From a virus (lineage: Duplodnaviria; Caudoviricetes): a DNA stretch of 64,000 nt. Positions 25,553 to 45,830 of the stretch are shown here, one piece after another (position 1 is the stretch's first letter; each line of letters starts with the position of its first letter). The DNA is taken from IMG/VR virus record IMGVR_UViG_3300031998_000009, positions 32,001-96,000 of that record. One strand, given 5' to 3'. The translations under genes and the position numbers were made by a program. The notes under the pieces are model-generated. The model searched no databases. It was not told the origin of the DNA and was given only the letters and a program-made list of their open reading frames with translations.

Positions 25553-26098
25553 TTAATTAGTTTCTTTTAACTTTGTTTTAACTTTACCATATTTTTCCAA
25601 TTCATATTTTGTTATTCTGCTTTGTACTTCAGATAGTTTTGTTTTAAATAATTTCATAACAGCTTTTCGAAGATTTTTAGGTTTCATCCCTACAATAGGA
25701 ACAGGTAAAGTAGGTCCATTTTCTGGATGAACATCTTTATGATCCGATAATCGTATAGTATATGAATAAATTTCTTCTAACTTATCTTGTGGAACATCCT
25801 CCGGATGTCTAAATACAATATCAATGTAATTAGATAAACCCCTTGGATTTTTTCTTCGAGAATTACGGGCACTAGCACTTTCTACATAAGAAAATTGTTC
25901 CAATTCCTCTGCAATAGGATCTAAATATCTTGCCCTTATGTACAGACGTGTCTCTACTTGGTCTCTATAGGAGTCACCACATAATATTTCATCTTCGGGT
26001 TCTAATAACTCTTCTTCTAACGGACCTACCGTATCTAGATAAGGTATCATACTTACATAAAGTATATTACTAAAGGATTCACTAATGGTTAATTTCAT
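25553..26098 (-). CDS. Cassette gene B copy 1 (leader MKLTISE; IRxSDH motif)
   Basis: GLSNYIDIVF.HP, Y.IR.SDHK, IVGMKPKN shared with 52812..53360. Confidence 0.85.
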   Translation of the reverse strand: MKLTISESFSNILYVSMIPYLDTVGPLEEELLEPEDEILCGDSYRDQVETRLYIRARYLDPIAEELEQFSYVESASARNSRRKNPRGLSNYIDIVFRHPEDVPQDKLEEIYSYTIRLSDHKDVHPENGPTLPVPIVGMKPKNLRKAVMKLFKTKLSEVQSRITKYELEKYGKVKTKLKETN

Positions 26099-26560: not shown

Positions 26561-26637
26561 AGTATAACACATTATTATCAAAAAGTCAATATGTAAATAT
26601 AACAAAAACCACACATAAAAATGTATGGTTTTTGTTG
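26561..26637 (-). promoter_or_regulatory. Promoter P8 plus stem-loop
   Basis: TTGACT-17-TATACT; hairpin caaaaacca...tggtttttg. Confidence 0.85.
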
Positions 26638-27886: not shown

Positions 27887-28123
27887 TCAAAGATTAGTAG
27901 CTTTCATAGCACGAATAAGAGCGTTAAGAGCATCCCAAACATGATCACGAAGATCCTGGGCATTATTTTTAACATGAGCATTAAATTTTTCAGGCTCTAC
28001 AGACTTAAAAGCATTCCACTTTCTATTAAAGTCTTTAATCAGTTTATCTGTTTCATCAATATATGCCATACGGTAATACATATCACTACTGTCGTCTTCT
28101 CTTAATTTTAACTTTTCTACCAT
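27887..28123 (-). CDS. Leader-bearing small protein (MVEKLKLRE|D)
   Basis: ORF and leader motif. Confidence 0.75.
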   Translation of the reverse strand: MVEKLKLREDDSSDMYYRMAYIDETDKLIKDFNRKWNAFKSVEPEKFNAHVKNNAQDLRDHVWDALNALIRAMKATNL

Positions 28124-28140
28124 TATACAAACACCCCTTA

Positions 28141-28596
28141 TTATTTAGTTCCACTAATTAACATTTCGATCAGGATCTCTTTGATATCGAAATCGTTTAT
28201 ATTTGTTTGGAAACCATCAATAAATCCTTCATCCTCGGCAAAACTTAGGAAATCTTCAATATCACCCATCTGTTCCTCGGATCTGTCAAACAAGGACTCG
28301 GCTTCTTCGTCATCCAGACCCAGGAACATAGCAATTTCTGCCATATCCTCATAATCTTCTACATCATATAGAATAAATGGAAGAAATGCTTGCATCGGTC
28401 CTGTGGATCTATTTGGAATAAATATCTCGGCAAGAATATGACCGTCTTCGTCAAACCATATAGCTTCTTCAACTTGATCATTCCAAATAACAACATCACC
28501 ATTTTTCATTGTGTGTTTATAATTCTTCATTTTTATTTCACTCCTCAATATCTGATAATTGTTTGAATTCATTATATAGTCTGTGAACAGCGGCAT
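28141..28596 (-). CDS. Acidic hypothetical protein
   Basis: ORF; likely start MKNYKHT (28530). Confidence 0.7.
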   Translation of the reverse strand: MPLFTDYIMNSNNYQILRSEIKMKNYKHTMKNGDVVIWNDQVEEAIWFDEDGHILAEIFIPNRSTGPMQAFLPFILYDVEDYEDMAEIAMFLGLDDEEAESLFDRSEEQMGDIEDFLSFAEDEGFIDGFQTNINDFDIKEILIEMLISGTK

Positions 28597-28795
28597 GAAT
28601 ATCAGACACTACCTCTATATAGTGCTGTGCTTCATTATAGTCCCCAAATCTACTTTCAAGTTGATAGTCTTCTTCTGTGTCAGCTATCATATATTTTATA
28701 TCAAGTAAAAAATCTTTTAAGTCGTATTCAAAACTTTCAAGTACCCCTGTTACATCTGGAAACTCTTGTTTAGCTTCGTTTACTTGTTTTACCAT
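28538..28795 (-). CDS. Leader-bearing small acidic protein (MVKQVNE|A)
   Basis: ORF and leader motif. Confidence 0.75.
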   Translation of the reverse strand: MVKQVNEAKQEFPDVTGVLESFEYDLKDFLLDIKYMIADTEEDYQLESRFGDYNEAQHYIEVVSDIHAAVHRLYNEFKQLSDIEE

Positions 28796-28891
28796 AATCC
28801 ATATTCACCCCTTAAATTAAACAAACTACTAATTTTATAGTATAGTGGATTATAATTTGTTTAATTATTTGGGAATATATGTTTTATGTAA

Positions 28892-28930
28892 AATTAGGTT
28901 CACTTATCTAATGAATAAGTGAACCTAATT
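28892..28930. terminator. Stem-loop downstream of 28934..29305
   Basis: aattaggttcacttat...ataagtgaacctaatt perfect stem. Confidence 0.75.
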
Positions 28931-28933
28931 CTT

Positions 28934-29305
28934 TTACTCCTGGTCATTATTCACAACCTTCATATCTCTTCTTCTTCGTGCTTCCATGTTCACAACTTCC
29001 AGGAATGCAGATTTGGTATCCCTGTAGAACTCAATATCCTTCGAATAAGGTTTGTAACCAGTGATAATGTTGTCATCATTAAACTCACAATAGAGTCTGT
29101 CAAAATAATGTTCCACAGCATGCCACATCTCATTGAGTTCTTCTGTTTCTAGTTCTTCCAAAATAAGAGAATCTGTAACAAGCTTAATGTGCCCTGCTTT
29201 TATAAATCCGGGGTTAATATCTTTACGATGTTTTTCATATCTCTTAAATGTAAGGTGAACAATACCCAGTAAATCTTTCCTAGTCAGCATATTCGTTACC
29301 TCCAT
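28934..29305 (-). CDS. Hypothetical protein, monocistronic behind P9
   Basis: ORF between promoter and hairpin. Confidence 0.75.
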   Translation of the reverse strand: MEVTNMLTRKDLLGIVHLTFKRYEKHRKDINPGFIKAGHIKLVTDSLILEELETEELNEMWHAVEHYFDRLYCEFNDDNIITGYKPYSKDIEFYRDTKSAFLEVVNMEARRRRDMKVVNNDQE

Positions 29306-29341
29306 TATTTCGTTTGTCTTGTGTGTTTTACTTACATATAT

Positions 29342-29435
29342 AGTATAACATATTTATAGCAAAAAGTCAAGTGATTTCTGGAAATTTAGAAATAAAAAAT
29401 GTCACAAAGAATATAAAATTCAATGTGACATTTTT
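29342..29435 (-). promoter_or_regulatory. Promoter P9 plus stem-loop
   Basis: TTGACT-17-TATACT; hairpin aaaaatgtcaca...tgtgacattttt. Confidence 0.88.
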
Positions 29436-29458
29436 GTATAATATTTTGTGGATTTATT

Positions 29459-29851
29459 TTACATAAGGACTTTTTTAATAATAGTAGAATCCTTAACAAT
29501 TTCCTCGATCCAATCTCCACCAGAGATTGTGTCATCCCAACCCCAGATGATAGGATCTGTTTTAAGTTCAGGTACATTTAGGAAGAACAAATCAACTTGT
29601 CTACCATCATCGTCTGTCACTTGGAATGTGACTTCTGTTCCTTTTGGAATATACAGGTCACCATTCTCGTCACACCAGAAATCCTGTTCATTGATAAGTT
29701 TCCACAAGAGACCGTTTTCAAGAAGATCTTCGGTTTCATAAGTATTCTTATTTCCGAACCACAGATCGTTGTCCAATCTATAAGTACTACCGAAAACACG
29801 AAGACCTTTCTGAGAAAGGTTATTTGTGTTCATAATAGGTTTCTTTAACAT
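29459..29851 (-). CDS. Leaderless paralog of 31382..31912
   Basis: MLKKP...STYRL...LINEQDFWCDENGDLYIPKGTEVTF...DDDGRQVDLFFLNVPEL. Confidence 0.85.
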   Translation of the reverse strand: MLKKPIMNTNNLSQKGLRVFGSTYRLDNDLWFGNKNTYETEDLLENGLLWKLINEQDFWCDENGDLYIPKGTEVTFQVTDDDGRQVDLFFLNVPELKTDPIIWGWDDTISGGDWIEEIVKDSTIIKKVLM

Positions 29852-29869
29852 AATAACAACTCCTTTTTC

Positions 29870-31209
29870 TTATCTATCAAATGTTTCTGTTACTGTTCCA
29901 GTTTCATAATAAGTATTGACCCGAAGCCAACCATTATATTGAGCTGTCTCTGTTTGGTAGTAATGACCTTCTTCGTCTTTTCCTTCCGAAACAATAACAG
30001 ATTCACCTACTTTATTCTCACCCATAAGAGGTAATTGTTTGTTCTTTACCAGTTCTTTCATTTCTTCATAACTCATAACTTTTTCTCCTTTTTAAAAATT
30101 ACAGCTTTTCAATTCTTCCCTTACCATAACCTGGTGTATCCGAAACCGAATAACCGTTCATAAGGTAAAAGCCTCCATTGTCAAGACGAATCCTACCTGT
30201 AGGTGTGATTCTGATAATCTTACGCTTACCAAGATACTCACCGTAAGCGTTATATTCACGAACAATATCTCCCACGTTGAACTTTGTTGTGTTTGTCATA
30301 AATAGGACCTCCTTCTCAAATCAAACATTTTACGAGTTCATCAATCTTGGAATTTACTTTATCGAGCTTATCCTTGAATTTTTTATCACCGGTTAATTCA
30401 TATCCATCTTCCAGTGAATCCCTTTCGTTTGATAAACGTATGATTTTCTTTTTTATCTTTTCCTGTTCTTTAAGGGTTTCTTCCCATTGTTCTGGAGTCA
30501 TGCCCGTAGGCATCCTTAAAAAATCTTTAATTGTCATTTTATACACCAGCACTTTCACTTGTAAAGGTTTTAACAACGGCATTAAATGTTCCATGCCAAA
30601 TATCTCTTCCAGAATTAAGATAAGCATCTGCAAGTACATCCTCAACTGTTCTGTTATCCCTATTGGCAATATCCTTTGCTAGAACCTCACACATAGCCGA
30701 TAAGGTTTTCATGTAAGAATTTCTTTCAATATCATTCAGGAATACTGTCTCGTCATTAAACTGTAACATAGTAACCTCCATCAATATTTTTATATTTCAT
30801 CAATAAACTTTTTAGCAAGTCTTTTGTGTGTTTCAAAAGAAATGTCTACAACTTTCTTGTAACAATCAGAATTTTGATATCTGTCAGTTTTCTTCAAATT
30901 ATTAAGACGTTCAAGTGTTTCTAAACACTCATCAAGATTTGTTTCTCTACACACCATAATCACCACTCCTCCTTAAAATTCAACACCGTAAAATTTACCG
31001 ATAGCTTCCCAAGTAACATAAATGTGCTCAAGCTCAAGCAGTTCTTTGAACTCCTCAAAATCGGAATCTGTAATTGCCATATTATGGTCAACTTTGTATC
31101 CAAGTGTGGCATCATTGATCTTTTTGAAAATGGGTTTAAGGTAGCTGTATCTACCATCAATGACCTGTTTTTGAATATCCGTGATTTTAATCATCACATT
31201 TACCTTCAT
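29870..31209 (-). other. Operon of very short hypothetical genes downstream of P10
   Basis: 29870..30076, 30099..30299, 30316..30537, 30539..30784, about 30790..30957, 30973..31209, each with RBS. Confidence 0.75.
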
Positions 31210-31251
31210 GGTATACCCCCTTAATCATTACACATCTTTCTTACTATATAT

Positions 31252-31354
31252 AGTATAACATATTTATAATAATTTGTCAAGTAGTTTCCTAAAATTTAGA
31301 TAATAAAAATCACACAAATATATCCTTGTTAGATATGGATATATTTGTGTGATA
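31252..31354 (-). promoter_or_regulatory. Promoter P10 plus stem-loop
   Basis: TTGACA-17-TATACT; hairpin atcacacaaatatatcc...ggatatatttgtgtgat. Confidence 0.88.
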
Positions 31355-31381
31355 TTACTAGACTATATTATAATTCTTATA

Positions 31382-31912
31382 TTATCTATTCTTACGATAT
31401 TTTCCTCTATTCATAGATTCAGCAAAATATTCACCGTCATCAATAGGAGTGGAATCATTAATGATGTCGTAAGCCCAATCATCCTGATTGTAAGCTCTGT
31501 CTATCCACTTTTGAGCAGGTTCAGCTTCTAACTCAGACACGTTTAAAAAGTAAATGTAGAGGTGTCTGCCGTCGTCGTCAGGATAAAAATAGAAAGTAAA
31601 TTCTGTTCCTCTTGGGATATACACATGACCATCTTCGGCAACCCAGAAATCCTCATTCTCGATTAGATCTGCAAGTAGATTATCCTGGATAAACCATTTG
31701 TATACCTCACTCTTAAGATCCAGATCGAAATCTTTATTTAACCTGTATGTCGTACTAAAATCTTTAGCATCTTTGGCATCAATACCGTTTCTTTGAATAC
31801 GAACAAGTTCATCCCAATCCACATAGGGTTTCTTCAAATTCTCTGTCAAACTACGACCACGGACTCTTCTTTGTTTACTTTCATTAGTATTAAGTCTTAA
31901 TCTCTTAATCAT
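31382..31912 (-). CDS. Leader-bearing paralog of 29459..29851
   Basis: MIKRLRLNTNESKQRRVRGRSLTE|NLKKP...STTYRL...LIENEDFWVAEDGHVYIPRGTEFTF...DDDGRHLYIYFLNVSEL; start 31912 chosen from RBS. Confidence 0.85.
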   Translation of the reverse strand: MIKRLRLNTNESKQRRVRGRSLTENLKKPYVDWDELVRIQRNGIDAKDAKDFSTTYRLNKDFDLDLKSEVYKWFIQDNLLADLIENEDFWVAEDGHVYIPRGTEFTFYFYPDDDGRHLYIYFLNVSELEAEPAQKWIDRAYNQDDWAYDIINDSTPIDDGEYFAESMNRGKYRKNR

Positions 31913-32049
31913 AAATAAAACATCCTTTCTAATAATCATAATCATAATCAAAATAATATGGTTTAACCTTATAATTAAGGTTTTACATTATTTAATGTAA
32001 ATTACTGTTTTTTGATATTTTATTTTGTTTATTTTATAAAACTTTATTT

Positions 32050-32316
32050 TTATTTTACATGAACAGACATTGTAACACTATCATCTTCAAAATCAATTAA
32101 CATTACATATTCTGCTCCATATTCATAATAAAGATCTCCGGTTAGTTTTCTTAATTCTCCAATAGTGATATCTTCATAAAGAAGATCAAATTTAGCTCCC
32201 GGTCTTGTAGAATTATAAAGGTATACGTTTATATAAACATCAGAATAATTTATGGAACAGAAATCCATAATTTTGATTTTCTTTGTCTGGATACCTTCAT
32301 TTAACCTGTTTACCAT
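32050..32316 (-). CDS. Leader-bearing small protein (MVNRLNE|G)
   Basis: ORF and leader motif. Confidence 0.75.
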   Translation of the reverse strand: MVNRLNEGIQTKKIKIMDFCSINYSDVYINVYLYNSTRPGAKFDLLYEDITIGELRKLTGDLYYEYGAEYVMLIDFEDDSVTMSVHVK

Positions 32317-32372
32317 AATAAATCACAATCCTTTCACATTCTTAATCATTGCTGAATGGGATTTCATTCTAT

Positions 32373-32466
32373 TTCAATCTAGGTTATATGTTAATAGGTA
32401 TGATACTTGAATAATACTAGATGTAAGGCTTGCATTTTTATTGTTTATTGTTATTGTATAAGATAT
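32373..32466 (-). pseudogene. Decayed third copy of the YTITITN anchor-domain gene
   Basis: Translates ISYTITINNKNASLTSSIIQV, matching MLYTISITNKNVSLTSSTIQV of the 33307..35184 N-terminus; start ATA, early stop. Confidence 0.75.
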
Positions 32467-32481
32467 AATATATCATCTTCA

Positions 32482-33234
32482 TTAATCCCATTTAGGTATT
32501 TCATTGTGCTGAATCAAAATGTTTCCTTCTGAATCTATATATTGATAAAAATAAAAGTAGTACACACCAAAACCCTGTGGACCTACATCTCGAATTTCAA
32601 AAGTATCTATAGAAAAATTTCCGAACATATTATTGATGTAGGAACCGGAAACAATAAGACTATTAGTTTGAACAAGTGTATCTTTAAGAATGTATTTTTT
32701 AGCTGGAGTTTCTTTGGGCTCTACAACTATAAGAATATTATAAGGATCGTCACTAATAGCCTGTACGAGTTGACTTTTTGTTATGGATGTTATATATTTC
32801 TGGGAGTCTACGTCCCACGAAATATCTATTATAAAAGGAGTTGTTCCGCTAGGTTCGGCTTTATTCCAAGCACCATCAACAACTGTAAGAACTTTACCGT
32901 TATCGTCACTATTTACTTCTGGAAGTCCAGCATCAGAAGGACCTGTTTCTACAGTTACAGAAACATTATCTAGATTCATATTAAGATAGTACATGGTTTC
33001 ATCAGTATTATCTGTTTTAATCATAAGACTGGTTCCAGCTTCCAGTTTTACATATTGTACTCTTTTATAAAGTGGCACATATACAAATGTATCTGAATTA
33101 GTTACATCAGATGTATATTCCTCGATAGGAACATTTGGTTCTGTTATAAGTGAAGGAGATATTGTTTCTAGGTTTACTACTTTTGGTTCTACATAGCTAA
33201 CAGAAGTATTTGTAATAGTTATCGTATATCCCAT
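32482..33234 (-). CDS. Putative virion accessory protein: shared N-terminal anchor domain plus variable C-terminus
   Basis: First ~95 aa paralogous to 33307..35184; LPEVNSDDNGKVLTVVDGAW fibre-type linker. Confidence 0.7.
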   Translation of the reverse strand: MGYTITITNTSVSYVEPKVVNLETISPSLITEPNVPIEEYTSDVTNSDTFVYVPLYKRVQYVKLEAGTSLMIKTDNTDETMYYLNMNLDNVSVTVETGPSDAGLPEVNSDDNGKVLTVVDGAWNKAEPSGTTPFIIDISWDVDSQKYITSITKSQLVQAISDDPYNILIVVEPKETPAKKYILKDTLVQTNSLIVSGSYINNMFGNFSIDTFEIRDVGPQGFGVYYFYFYQYIDSEGNILIQHNEIPKWD

Positions 33235-33306
33235 TACACATCATCCTTTCTTCATAAAATAGTTGTTCTAGTATCTAAACCTGAACTACTATTAACAATT
33301 CTTATA

Positions 33307-35184
33307 TTAGTATCCGACATATGTATAGGTATTACTATCTGGATAATTTGTTGCTGATTTATACATTTCCAAAGAATCTGATGGAACATAAATAATACAA
33401 GTTGTAGGAAGATTATAAAATACATTCGAATTACTGACGGTTGGAGGTGTTTCTGATTCAAATCGAATATATCCAAGACTATAACAGTTATAAAATGCAC
33501 TTCCTCCAATATCGGTCACATCATATGGAATTGTGATGTTTGTTAAAGCATAACAACCATAAAATGCCCAATCTCCAATACTTGTAACGCTTTCTGGAAT
33601 TGTGATACTTGTTAAAGCATGACAACCTTGAAATGCAGAATCTCCAATATCTGAAACATAATCTGGAACTGTAATGCTTGTTAAAGCAAAACAAGAATCA
33701 AATGCACCAGAATAAATATATAAAACACTATCTGGAATTGTAATACTTGTTAAAGCCGTGCAGTAGGAAAATGCAGTATTACTAATATATGTAATACCAT
33801 ATGAAATTGTAATATTTGCTAATGAAGTACAATAATAAAATGCTTTGCTTCCAATACTTGTAACACTATATGGAATTGTAATACTTTTTAATGAATTACA
33901 ATTATCAAATGCTTCATCTTCAATATCTGTAATAGTATCTGAAAGTATGACACTTGCTAAATTGTTACAATAATTAAATGCATTCATTTCAATACTTGTA
34001 ATCCCAGATGGAATTGTGATACTTTTTAACGAGGTGCATGACTGAAATGCATACATATCAATGCTTGTATCAACTCCATTTGAAATCATAATTTCAGATA
34101 AAGTATAATGACGTGCAAAAGCTTCGTCACCAATCGATATATTTCCACAAATAAAAATTTTCTTCAGTGTCAATGCATACACATCAACATTATTAGCAGC
34201 CAATGATACAATGATACCTGACGATATTTTTGCATTTCCGCTCACACTAAACGAAATCACATAATTTCCGGGAGTGCTATAAGTATGTGATTGATATACA
34301 GGTGTGTCAACATCAGTACCAACCATTGTATCATGCGTTGAACCGTCACCCCAGTCAACATCAACACTACCATCAATTCCCAATTTTAAATTAGGAGAAA
34401 GTGCGCCATCTGAAAGTGTTATAAACAGTTTTGTCGCACCATCTGTCGTACTATAAGTTGCACCAATATTTAAAAAACCATATTCATCAACATATGCTTT
34501 TGCATCATCCAAGTAATGATTGTATTCATTAAATGTTAAATATTCATGTGATGGTGGTGTTGGATAACTTTCAAGTCGTAAAAATTGTTGTGCTGTGTAA
34601 GATGCAATAACAGAACCATCATAGTCATATAAAATAACATCCTGACCATTACTACTAGGTTCTGGTCCTATATTACCTGCAACATCGGCAATATTTTCAA
34701 TAGCGTCAGAAACAGTAGTAGCATCTCCTTCACCTTGATACATTACAGAAATAGCATTTAGAACATCTACTGTAGAAGTAAGATCAGCAACTGCAGAACT
34801 ATCTCCACCTAATGCTACATATAGATCTTTTAATGAATCTACAACTGGGTCATCTGTTGATTCTCCTGTAATTGGATCTGGATTACATAAAACAATGCTC
34901 CCGGTAAGATTCATATTTCTATAGTATACTGCCTCATCTGGACATTCTGTTGTTATTGTTAAAACTGTTCCTGGTTCAAGAATAACAAACTGATTTCTTT
35001 TATACAGAGGGACATAAATATTCCTATCTTCGTTGGTGTTATCCTTTGTGTATTCTTCAATAGGAGTATTAGGTTTCGTCAATAGTGAAGGTGATATTGT
35101 TCCTAGATCTAATACTTGAATAGTACTAGATGTTAGACTTACATTTTTATTAGTTATTGAAATAGTGTATAACATGAATAACAC
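33307..35184 (-). CDS. BspA-type leucine-rich-repeat protein with anchor and PKD-like domains
   Basis: About ten 23-aa LTSITIPxxVTSIGxxAFxxC repeats; VDWGDG..H.Y..PG.Y PKD motif. Confidence 0.85.
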   Translation of the reverse strand: MLFMLYTISITNKNVSLTSSTIQVLDLGTISPSLLTKPNTPIEEYTKDNTNEDRNIYVPLYKRNQFVILEPGTVLTITTECPDEAVYYRNMNLTGSIVLCNPDPITGESTDDPVVDSLKDLYVALGGDSSAVADLTSTVDVLNAISVMYQGEGDATTVSDAIENIADVAGNIGPEPSSNGQDVILYDYDGSVIASYTAQQFLRLESYPTPPSHEYLTFNEYNHYLDDAKAYVDEYGFLNIGATYSTTDGATKLFITLSDGALSPNLKLGIDGSVDVDWGDGSTHDTMVGTDVDTPVYQSHTYSTPGNYVISFSVSGNAKISSGIIVSLAANNVDVYALTLKKIFICGNISIGDEAFARHYTLSEIMISNGVDTSIDMYAFQSCTSLKSITIPSGITSIEMNAFNYCNNLASVILSDTITDIEDEAFDNCNSLKSITIPYSVTSIGSKAFYYCTSLANITISYGITYISNTAFSYCTALTSITIPDSVLYIYSGAFDSCFALTSITVPDYVSDIGDSAFQGCHALTSITIPESVTSIGDWAFYGCYALTNITIPYDVTDIGGSAFYNCYSLGYIRFESETPPTVSNSNVFYNLPTTCIIYVPSDSLEMYKSATNYPDSNTYTYVGY

Positions 35185-35204: not shown

Positions 35205-35468
35205 TTATCTAAGGTTAGACAAAGCTACATTAAGGAAGAAATTCTTTATCTCGTCATCAGATTCGTCACTATTAGCAACTACTCCTAGAGTATAGTTACC
35301 AGCTTGATTAGAAGAGATAACTTCAAAATTCATAAATGTTTTACCATCTAGAACTCTCTTAATATTATCAATATCTCTTTTATTGAAGAAACCTAATTCA
35401 TCAAACCAAATTTCTCTACCTGTTTTAGATTCCATGTTTGATTCTGAAAGTCTTAATTTTCTTACCAT
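35205..35468 (-). CDS. Leader-bearing small protein (MVRKLRLSE|S)
   Basis: ORF and leader motif. Confidence 0.75.
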   Translation of the reverse strand: MVRKLRLSESNMESKTGREIWFDELGFFNKRDIDNIKRVLDGKTFMNFEVISSNQAGNYTLGVVANSDESDDEIKNFFLNVALSNLR

Positions 35469-35519
35469 AAATAATCAGACTCCTTTTAATTATATTTAAA
35501 GTATTTATATATAATAAAA

Positions 35520-45575: not shown

Positions 45576-45830
45576 TTATGAATTATAAAGACCTATATTT
45601 CTAGCACATTGTTTTATAGCAGTATAGTTAGCTTGCAATTCATTTCTAATGTCTAAAAGATCCTCTACCCACTGATAAATAAATTCTTCGTCAATCCCAC
45701 CTGATTCCTCTAACTCTGTAATATAATTGTCTAATGATTTAATAACATTTGGAATACCCTTAAAATCGACATCTTCAGTTAGTCCTATTCTTCTACTTGC
45801 AGACATTGATCTGTTAGCTTTCTTAATCAT
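45576..45830 (-). CDS. Leader-bearing small protein (MIKK...RRIGLTE|D)
   Basis: Basic leader ending LTE, then acidic body. Confidence 0.7.
   Translation of the reverse strand: MIKKANRSMSASRRIGLTEDVDFKGIPNVIKSLDNYITELEESGGIDEEFIYQWVEDLLDIRNELQANYTAIKQCARNIGLYNS

Follow-up and report, generated by a model that had tools for sequence, protein, structure and literature searches.

Does a phage that carries the same protein domain twice, once behind an N-terminal leader and once without it, keep the two as an injected and a newly synthesised version of one activity? The question arises in a stretch of 64,000 nucleotides (the window hereafter; bases 32001-96000 of a 198.5-kb uncultured phage record, IMGVR_UViG_3300031998_000009; G+C 33%), where the original prediction, made from the letters alone, had paired a 176-aa gene with a leader ending in LTE (the long copy) with a 130-aa gene starting MLKKP (the short copy). 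The genome is that of a large uncultured T4-like phage, which carries nearly all of its genes on the minus strand. The two copies are members of a small phage protein family that had no name before, with a core of ~135 aa of mixed helices and strands.

Origin of the short copy

Both open reading frames (ORFs) are present on the minus strand as predicted (Table 1), and the two copies are paralogs: BLASTP aligns residues 2-125 of the short copy with residues 26-157 of the long one at 38% identity (E 2e-24). They also lie in separate transcription units, as had been proposed. The long copy is separated by a terminator hairpin and the early promoter P10 from the operon that the short copy closes, the genes of which are closely packed (6-25-nt gaps) from the promoter to position 29459. 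P10 is among 38 near-identical intergenic instances genome-wide of an early-promoter module, TTGACW-N14-TGTTATACT, and the short copy retains a strong AAGGAG ribosome-binding site (RBS).

The nearest relatives of the short copy (P0009, P0016 and P0017; 90% protein identity, at least five contigs) start MVKKLRLKE↓DLDP(I/V)MNT and end ...ST(V/I)I(E/R)E↓SPYVK, where arrows mark candidate cleavage sites; a more distant short-type member, P0012, starts MVKPINE↓S. In an affine-gap DNA alignment of the short copy with the orthologous locus L004, conservation covers the RBS, the ATG start and codons 2 to 4 (GTA/TTA AAG AAA), the next 24 nt, encoding LRLKEDLD, are deleted in frame relative to L004 and L006, and the sequences are collinear again from CCT ATT ATG onwards, at 89% identity. 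The short copy is therefore a derived tag-loss allele of a leader-bearing gene. The idea of a leaderless copy purpose-built as a second version does not survive this comparison, as the orthologs keep MVKKLRLKE↓ and it is the window copy that lost 24 nt. The proposal that similarity starts just after LTE held in part: the alignment does begin at LKKP, but MLKK represents the first four codons of a truncated leader, and the short-type equivalent of the start of the long-type core, DLDP, was deleted, so that the likeness of MLKK to NLKKP is a coincidence of register.

The C-terminus of the short copy differs by a separate 1-nt deletion, six codons from the end, which removes an I-x-E↓S site; the old stop codon and the downstream sequence are still discernible. 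Three sources, JGI, Logan and ENA, hold records of the identical 130-aa protein (P0015), and since they agree, an assembly error behind the 24-nt deletion is unlikely, although they may share one sample. The tagless form is found in one phage genome only, on two near-identical contigs. Over 118 core codons, which contain no internal stop or frameshift, comparison with the L004 and L006 orthologs gives a ratio of nonsynonymous to synonymous substitution rates (dN/dS) of 0.09-0.10, not assignable to the period after the deletion, with dS of 0.42-0.45 (11.5 nonsynonymous versus 23.5 synonymous differences). Purifying selection has acted on the core for most of its divergence from the orthologs.

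The gene order of L004 indicates how the short copy may have reached its present operon. There, the orthologs of the P10 operon are followed by three other genes, a terminator, five leader genes, a terminator and a P9-type promoter. The run of leader genes has no early promoter and consists of MVKKLRLKE, MVKKLNE (orthologous to window gene 32050-32316), MVRKLKE, the short-type ortholog and MIKKANR...LTE. Homology between the window and L004 ends at 30313 and restarts at 29839, with two unrelated small genes in between. As it resumes at codon 5 of the short copy, the right-hand breakpoint lies inside the leader-coding sequence, and a single event may account for both the new transcription unit and the tag loss. 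The last gene of the L004 run (L004:6498-6752), located directly after the short-type ortholog, has its counterpart at window 45576-45830, ~16 kb away in the window genome; both begin MIKKANRSM(S/A)(A/T)SRRI(G/E)LTE↓D, a long basic leader ending in LTE like the linker of the long copy.

The family and the history of the long copy

Relatives were collected by running HMMER exhaustively over 1.84 billion cluster representatives, complemented by word-based searches and cluster listings. The former returned just five genuine family representatives, and the latter ~25 distinct family sequences from both lineages; scans of IMG/VR and JGI metagenomes with the family alignment gave zero relatives. In all members seen (~25) except the window short copy, [LIV]-x-E↓[SND] immediately precedes the core, in the variants LTE↓N, LTE↓S, VNE↓S, INE↓D, IYE↓N, INE↓S, IKE↓S and LKE↓D. 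Among long-type relatives, L-x-K-P opens the core after the site in every case and the preceding segment is variable. The glutamate itself (E24 in the long copy) is conserved in 12 of the 13 rows of the family alignment. Hence, the extension is not an ordinary variable N-terminus but one that ends in a family-conserved Glu site.

As far as their sequences tell, family members would normally be made as precursors that open with a propeptide, M-[VI]-[KR]-[KR]-L-x-[LI]-x-E or the shorter MKLRI-x-E, to which some lineages add a C-terminal [FI]-x-E↓S trailer. An optional middle part, a passenger domain and/or a basic linker, ends again in [LIV]-x-E right before the core. The minimal form has the leader alone (MKLRINE↓DLNKP in P0007, MKLRIYE↓NLSKP in P0008, MVKLINE↓SNGSNKP in P0010); a second form has a leader and a linker (MVKKLRIKE↓SNDDRRSRSVNE↓SLSKP in P0005, MVRLIKE↓SMEQDITSLTE↓SLKKP in P0004); and the largest, represented by P0002, P0006 and P0019, has a leader, a passenger domain of ~115 aa and a basic linker. 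The passenger domain is 57-60% identical across these three members; it has no copy elsewhere in this phage genome, and no stand-alone version was found at 72-230 aa. At the other end, the basic tail noticed after FAE in the long copy is there, and its subclade conserves F-[AG]-E↓S followed by a basic run, which is kept in P0002-4, P0019, P0022, P0027 and P0029 and absent from P0005-8. Note that [LIV]-x-E↓S recurs inside two-domain members, exactly where their domains meet (LVGE↓S, SLTE↓S, YTKE↓S, SVNE↓S), as well as at C-termini.

AlphaFold2, run on the 13-row family alignment, gives a model of the whole long copy with a mean predicted local distance difference test score (pLDDT) of 77 and a predicted template modelling score (pTM) of 0.72, in which residues 25-164 form a confident core of mixed helices and strands. 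Residues 1-24 and 165-176 have a pLDDT below 50, and the two sites LTE24↓N and FAE165↓S match these disordered ends in position. The leader thus behaves as a module, as had been proposed: N-terminal parts are swapped or deleted as units, and both extension and tail are predicted to be disordered appendages. The core resembles no known fold or family in the resources searched: Pfam and PHROGs gave nothing below E 0.1 for either copy, Foldseek found no credible match (best E 0.39 in the PDB and 0.055 in BFVD), the best Z of 3.7 from VIA-align over 48,161 chains is not credible, and ESM Atlas yielded no credible family at a best score of 0.77.

The long copy has its own deletion history. P0019 falls in the same 90% cluster, and its locus, L010, is collinear with the window through the upstream untranslated region (UTR), the RBS and the first seven codons. 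After codon 7, L010 has 363 nt more than the window (121 codons, comprising the leader's Glu and the passenger domain), and the two come together again at YTKE↓SKQRK of L010 and NTNE↓SKQRR of the window. Given this in-frame gap, MIKRLRLNTNE is a leader stump to which the last residues of the missing passenger domain are fused. The long copy, the ORF of which begins MIKRLRLNTNESKQRRVRGRSLTENLKKP, is itself an in-frame deletion derivative of a leader-passenger-linker-domain gene, and its candidate site, if any is functional, is LTE24↓N. A TTG at 31951 was considered as an alternative start of the long copy and rejected, as a 5-nt indel in L010 just upstream of 31912 breaks the frame.

Table 1. 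Features of the two copies and their surroundings (window coordinates)
Feature	Position	Strand	Remarks
Neighbour leader gene	32050-32316	-	MVNRLNE↓G; 88 aa; L004 ortholog shares a leader-gene cluster with the short-type ortholog
5' UTR of long copy	31913-32049	-	no early promoter; TATAAAAT box at 32031-32038; two small hairpins; outer stem pairs with the Shine-Dalgarno sequence (SD)
Long copy	31382-31912	-	176 aa; stump MIKRLRL, then NTNE↓SKQRRVRGRSLTE↓, folded domain (residues 25-164), then FAE↓SMNRGKYRKNR
Propeptide, codons 1-24	31841-31912	-	ends LTE24; pLDDT <50
Basic trailer SMNRGKYRKNR	31385-31417	-	follows FAE165; pLDDT <50 at residues 165-176
Terminator after long copy	31309-31353	-	17-bp stem, -26.8 kcal/mol, z -5.9, then U-run; directly before P10
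Early promoter P10	31252-31280	-	sigma-70-type; TTGACA-N17-TATACT with TG extension
Short copy	29459-29851	-	130 aa, MLKKPIMNT...; leader-truncated paralog; final gene of the P10 early operon
Leader stump	29840-29851	-	ATG TTA AAG AAA (MLKK); deletion junction between 29840 and 29839
1-nt deletion	29474-29479	-	TVIEESPYVK-stop to TIIKKVLM-stop; I-x-E↓S site lost
Terminator after short copy	29395-29435	-	hairpin and U-run; -18.6 kcal/mol, z -4.7
P9, next early promoter	29342-29370	-	same promoter set

The orthologs of the long copy in L010 and L012 have the identical arrangement of terminator plus promoter downstream. Upstream, no early promoter lies between 31280 and 43292. Boxes resembling TATAAATA are found ~100-120 nt upstream of the gene in the window, in L011 (TATAAATA itself) and in L012 (TATAAATT), at similar distances, which is a weak hint and no proof. 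In the predicted fold of the 5' UTR, AAAAUAAAAUAUC forms the outer stem with GGAUGUUUUAUUU, which contains the SD (z -2.6). Two genes on the upstream side of the long copy, 32482-33234 and 33307-35184, the latter with BspA-type LRRs, carry a common N-terminal module of ~100 aa, which matches a 108-aa protein adjoining the major capsid gene (G000:C1:166426-166752; 47% identity, E 5e-24). This capsid-adjacent module suggests that the long copy belongs to a virion-protein unit. The module may serve for virion docking or decoration, bearing varied passenger domains.

Three further members deserve mention. P0011 (222 aa) has a leader-like KVKKLIIKE↓SLPKP mid-protein, after an unrelated N-terminal part of ~90 aa, and could be either a gene fusion with the leader as linker or a gene with a mis-called start. 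P0033 (141 aa; MBO7211913.1 / MBO7696799.1) is deposited as a protein from a metagenome-assembled genome of Methanobrevibacter sp., on contigs of up to 49.8 kb; its contig is probably mis-binned phage, as the sigma-70-type promoters of the phage argue for a bacterial host. Finally, a leader-passenger-linker-core gene at L011:5632-6522 (+ strand; 200,313-bp ENA contig), also present on the 76,070-bp contig of P0022, has one TAG in frame, at codon 41, in place of the Tyr of its relatives, and is split by gene callers into ORFs of 40 and 173 aa. It could be a nonsense allele; alternatively, the amber codon could be read through or recoded, the gene being a putative late one.

The leader as a candidate head-protease tag

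In T4, the prohead protease gp21 follows an L/I-x-E rule, ~10 residues of the capsid targeting sequence (CTS) suffice for targeting, and Alt is processed at both ends by gp21 (PMC9026906). The phage studied here encodes both a gp23-type capsid protein and a gp21-type prohead protease. The latter matches PF03420 above cut-off (C1:169838-170350), and, in an alignment to T4 gp21 (PDB 5JBL), its motifs ELDHPE and GVSSRG supply the catalytic His and Ser, respectively; the capsid protein reads MICE↓A near residue 62, near the T4 cut after Glu65. Candidate sites in the family fit the T4 rule, with S-L-T-E24↓N bordering the folded core in the long copy and no site in the short copy. Leader-like starts are also frequent beyond the family: 69 of 284 predicted proteins have [LIV]-x-E within residues 2-11, against 39.8 ± 5.6 in internal windows. 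The leader codons differ between genes (CTC/TTA/CTT/CTA, ATA/ATT, AGA/AGG), so that conservation acts at the level of the peptide, and conservation of the leader as DNA, be it a recombination element or an RNA element, was rejected as the main explanation on the same ground. As a separate observation, two leader genes of different phages (window 35442-35497 and L004:5974-6027), though unrelated, are 84% identical over 56 nt of RBS and leader DNA. The window also encodes NrdD, a Pnkp/RNA-ligase fusion, ThyX and TnpB, and a blastn search of GenBank phages with window 28000-34000 gave zero DNA-level matches.

The reading that best accounts for these data, to which we give a probability of about 0.6, is that the family members are precursors of T4-style head cargo trimmed by the prohead protease, and that the short copy is one natural tag-loss allele among them. 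The propeptide would bring the protein into the prohead, the gp21-type protease would trim both ends, and the mature core would ride in the capsid and enter the host with the DNA. In the window, the rearrangement placed the short copy behind an early sigma-70 operon, leaving MLKK and removing the Glu site, and the separate 1-nt deletion took out its C-terminal site; on this reading, the short copy would now be made early in the cell and be neither packaged nor trimmed. Several points weigh against this reading. Leader-like N-termini occur in early-promoter operons, e.g. MKLTISE (25553-26098, behind the promoter at 26561), and the split into early, untagged and late, tagged genes is therefore not clean. 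No late-promoter consensus emerged, TATAAATA, TTTATAAAA and related words not being clearly linked to structural genes, and 'late' is for this reason suggested for the long copy by its context. The long-type C-terminal site departs from the L/I rule of T4 by its Phe at P3, and the deletion in the short copy is not datable within its divergence from the orthologs.

The fate of the short copy admits two other explanations. The phage could deliberately keep an injected, trimmed version and an early-made tagless one, the tag loss being adaptive and not a tolerated accident. That both candidate sites went through two independent lesions with the core intact, that dN/dS is as low as 0.09-0.10, that the gene has a strong RBS and an early-operon position, and that a tagged paralog is kept 1.5 kb away all accord with this idea. 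Yet all other members of either lineage are tagged, the breakpoint within the leader resembles a by-product of cassette rearrangement, a frameshift is tolerable only near the C-terminus, which makes its position uninformative, and nothing places the purifying selection after the deletion; we hold an adaptive second version to be possible, though rather improbable. At the opposite extreme, the short copy could be a decaying remnant, useless after truncation of its tag and heading for loss. Two terminal lesions, the restriction to one genome and the presence of a functional tagged paralog would be expected of such a relic, but 118 core codons without stop or frameshift, the excess of synonymous differences, and the intact RBS and start codon speak against it, and decay seems to us decidedly doubtful.

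For the leader, the competing view is that the N-terminal peptide is a tag of another kind, for docking to a partner or chaperone, for degradation or localisation, or as a translation-start context, with the Glu as part of the signal. The leader-like starts in early-promoter cassettes are in line with this, as is the identity over RBS and leader between the L004 ortholog and the unrelated leader gene at window 35442-35497. Neither a start context nor a docking signal explains why the motif recurs at internal domain junctions and at C-termini; moreover, synonymous codons vary, the motif fits the rule of a protease that the phage encodes, and the capsid protein has its own ICE↓A close to the position of the T4 cut. 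A different signal is thus unlikely. More speculative is a joint reading, which we likewise regard as unlikely, in which the parts of these genes obey a Glu-bounded 'exon-shuffling' grammar. Leader, passenger, basic linker, core and basic trailer would be gained, lost and re-joined at or beside protease sites, and no fewer than four independent deletions, all in frame and all falling between leader and core (in the long copy, in P0003/P0004/P0029, in P0005 versus P0006 and in the short copy) can be set beside it. In the short copy, an overshoot of eight codons would have turned an injected effector into an early cytoplasmic one, which was then kept by selection, and the released basic peptides, SKQRRVRGRSLTE and SMNRGKYRKNR, might act as DNA-binding counter-ions in the head.

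Relation to known phage systems

Under the head-cargo reading, the closest precedent is the set of T4 internal proteins IPI, IPII and IPIII with their CTS (PMC9026906), in which a short propeptide ending in hydrophobic-x-Glu likewise sits on small unrelated proteins as a portable tag; a gp21-type protease and a gp23-type capsid protein are common to both phages. The peptides themselves differ, being MVKKLRLKE or MKLRIKE here and MKTYQEFIAE in T4, the cargo domains are dissimilar, and some members of the present family, known here from sequence alone, add a passenger domain, basic linkers and a C-terminal trailer. T4 Alt, a head protein processed at its N- and C-terminus by gp21, as is gp21 itself (PMC9026906), offers a parallel for candidate Glu sites flanking a core, the trailers here being FAE↓S or FGE↓S in long-type members and I-x-E↓SPYVK in short-type orthologs; unlike Alt, the long-type trailer has Phe at P3 and several members lack a trailer. 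The head proteins and ejection-protein precursors of the giant phages phiKZ, 201phi2-1 and SPN3US (PMC9026906, PMC5694885, PMC7411985) are similar in that many proteins inside the head are cut after Glu with few other determinants and that multi-part precursors exist, but their sites are S/A-x-E and belong to other protein families, whereas [LIV]-x-E is used here, as in T4.

The rearrangement has its own counterpart in the PeSL of T4-type genomes, composite promoter-terminator motifs that mediate modular shuffling (PMC2839356, PMC4122927). The terminator hairpin followed by a near-identical early promoter, with 38 recurrences in this genome, is of the same kind, and the cassettes flank units that differ from those in L004, L010 and L012. 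In contrast to PeSL, one breakpoint here lies within a coding leader, and recombination at the cassettes is a deduction from comparisons between genomes.

The mechanism that we favour is the known one of T4, and the gain in that respect is modest; the new elements are the comparison across the whole family and the pair of deletion events. The pair also carries a caution, since the register of MLKKP and NLKKP in one genome hinted at design and the relatives reveal an accident. Repeated in-frame deletions between leader and core show a route by which cargo genes evolve. If the leader is indeed a capsid-loading and cleavage tag, the family would provide matched natural alleles for testing tag function, from the tagged 140-aa orthologs and the tag-deleted 130-aa form at 90% identity to forms in which the leader is minimal, extended by a linker or extended by a passenger domain.

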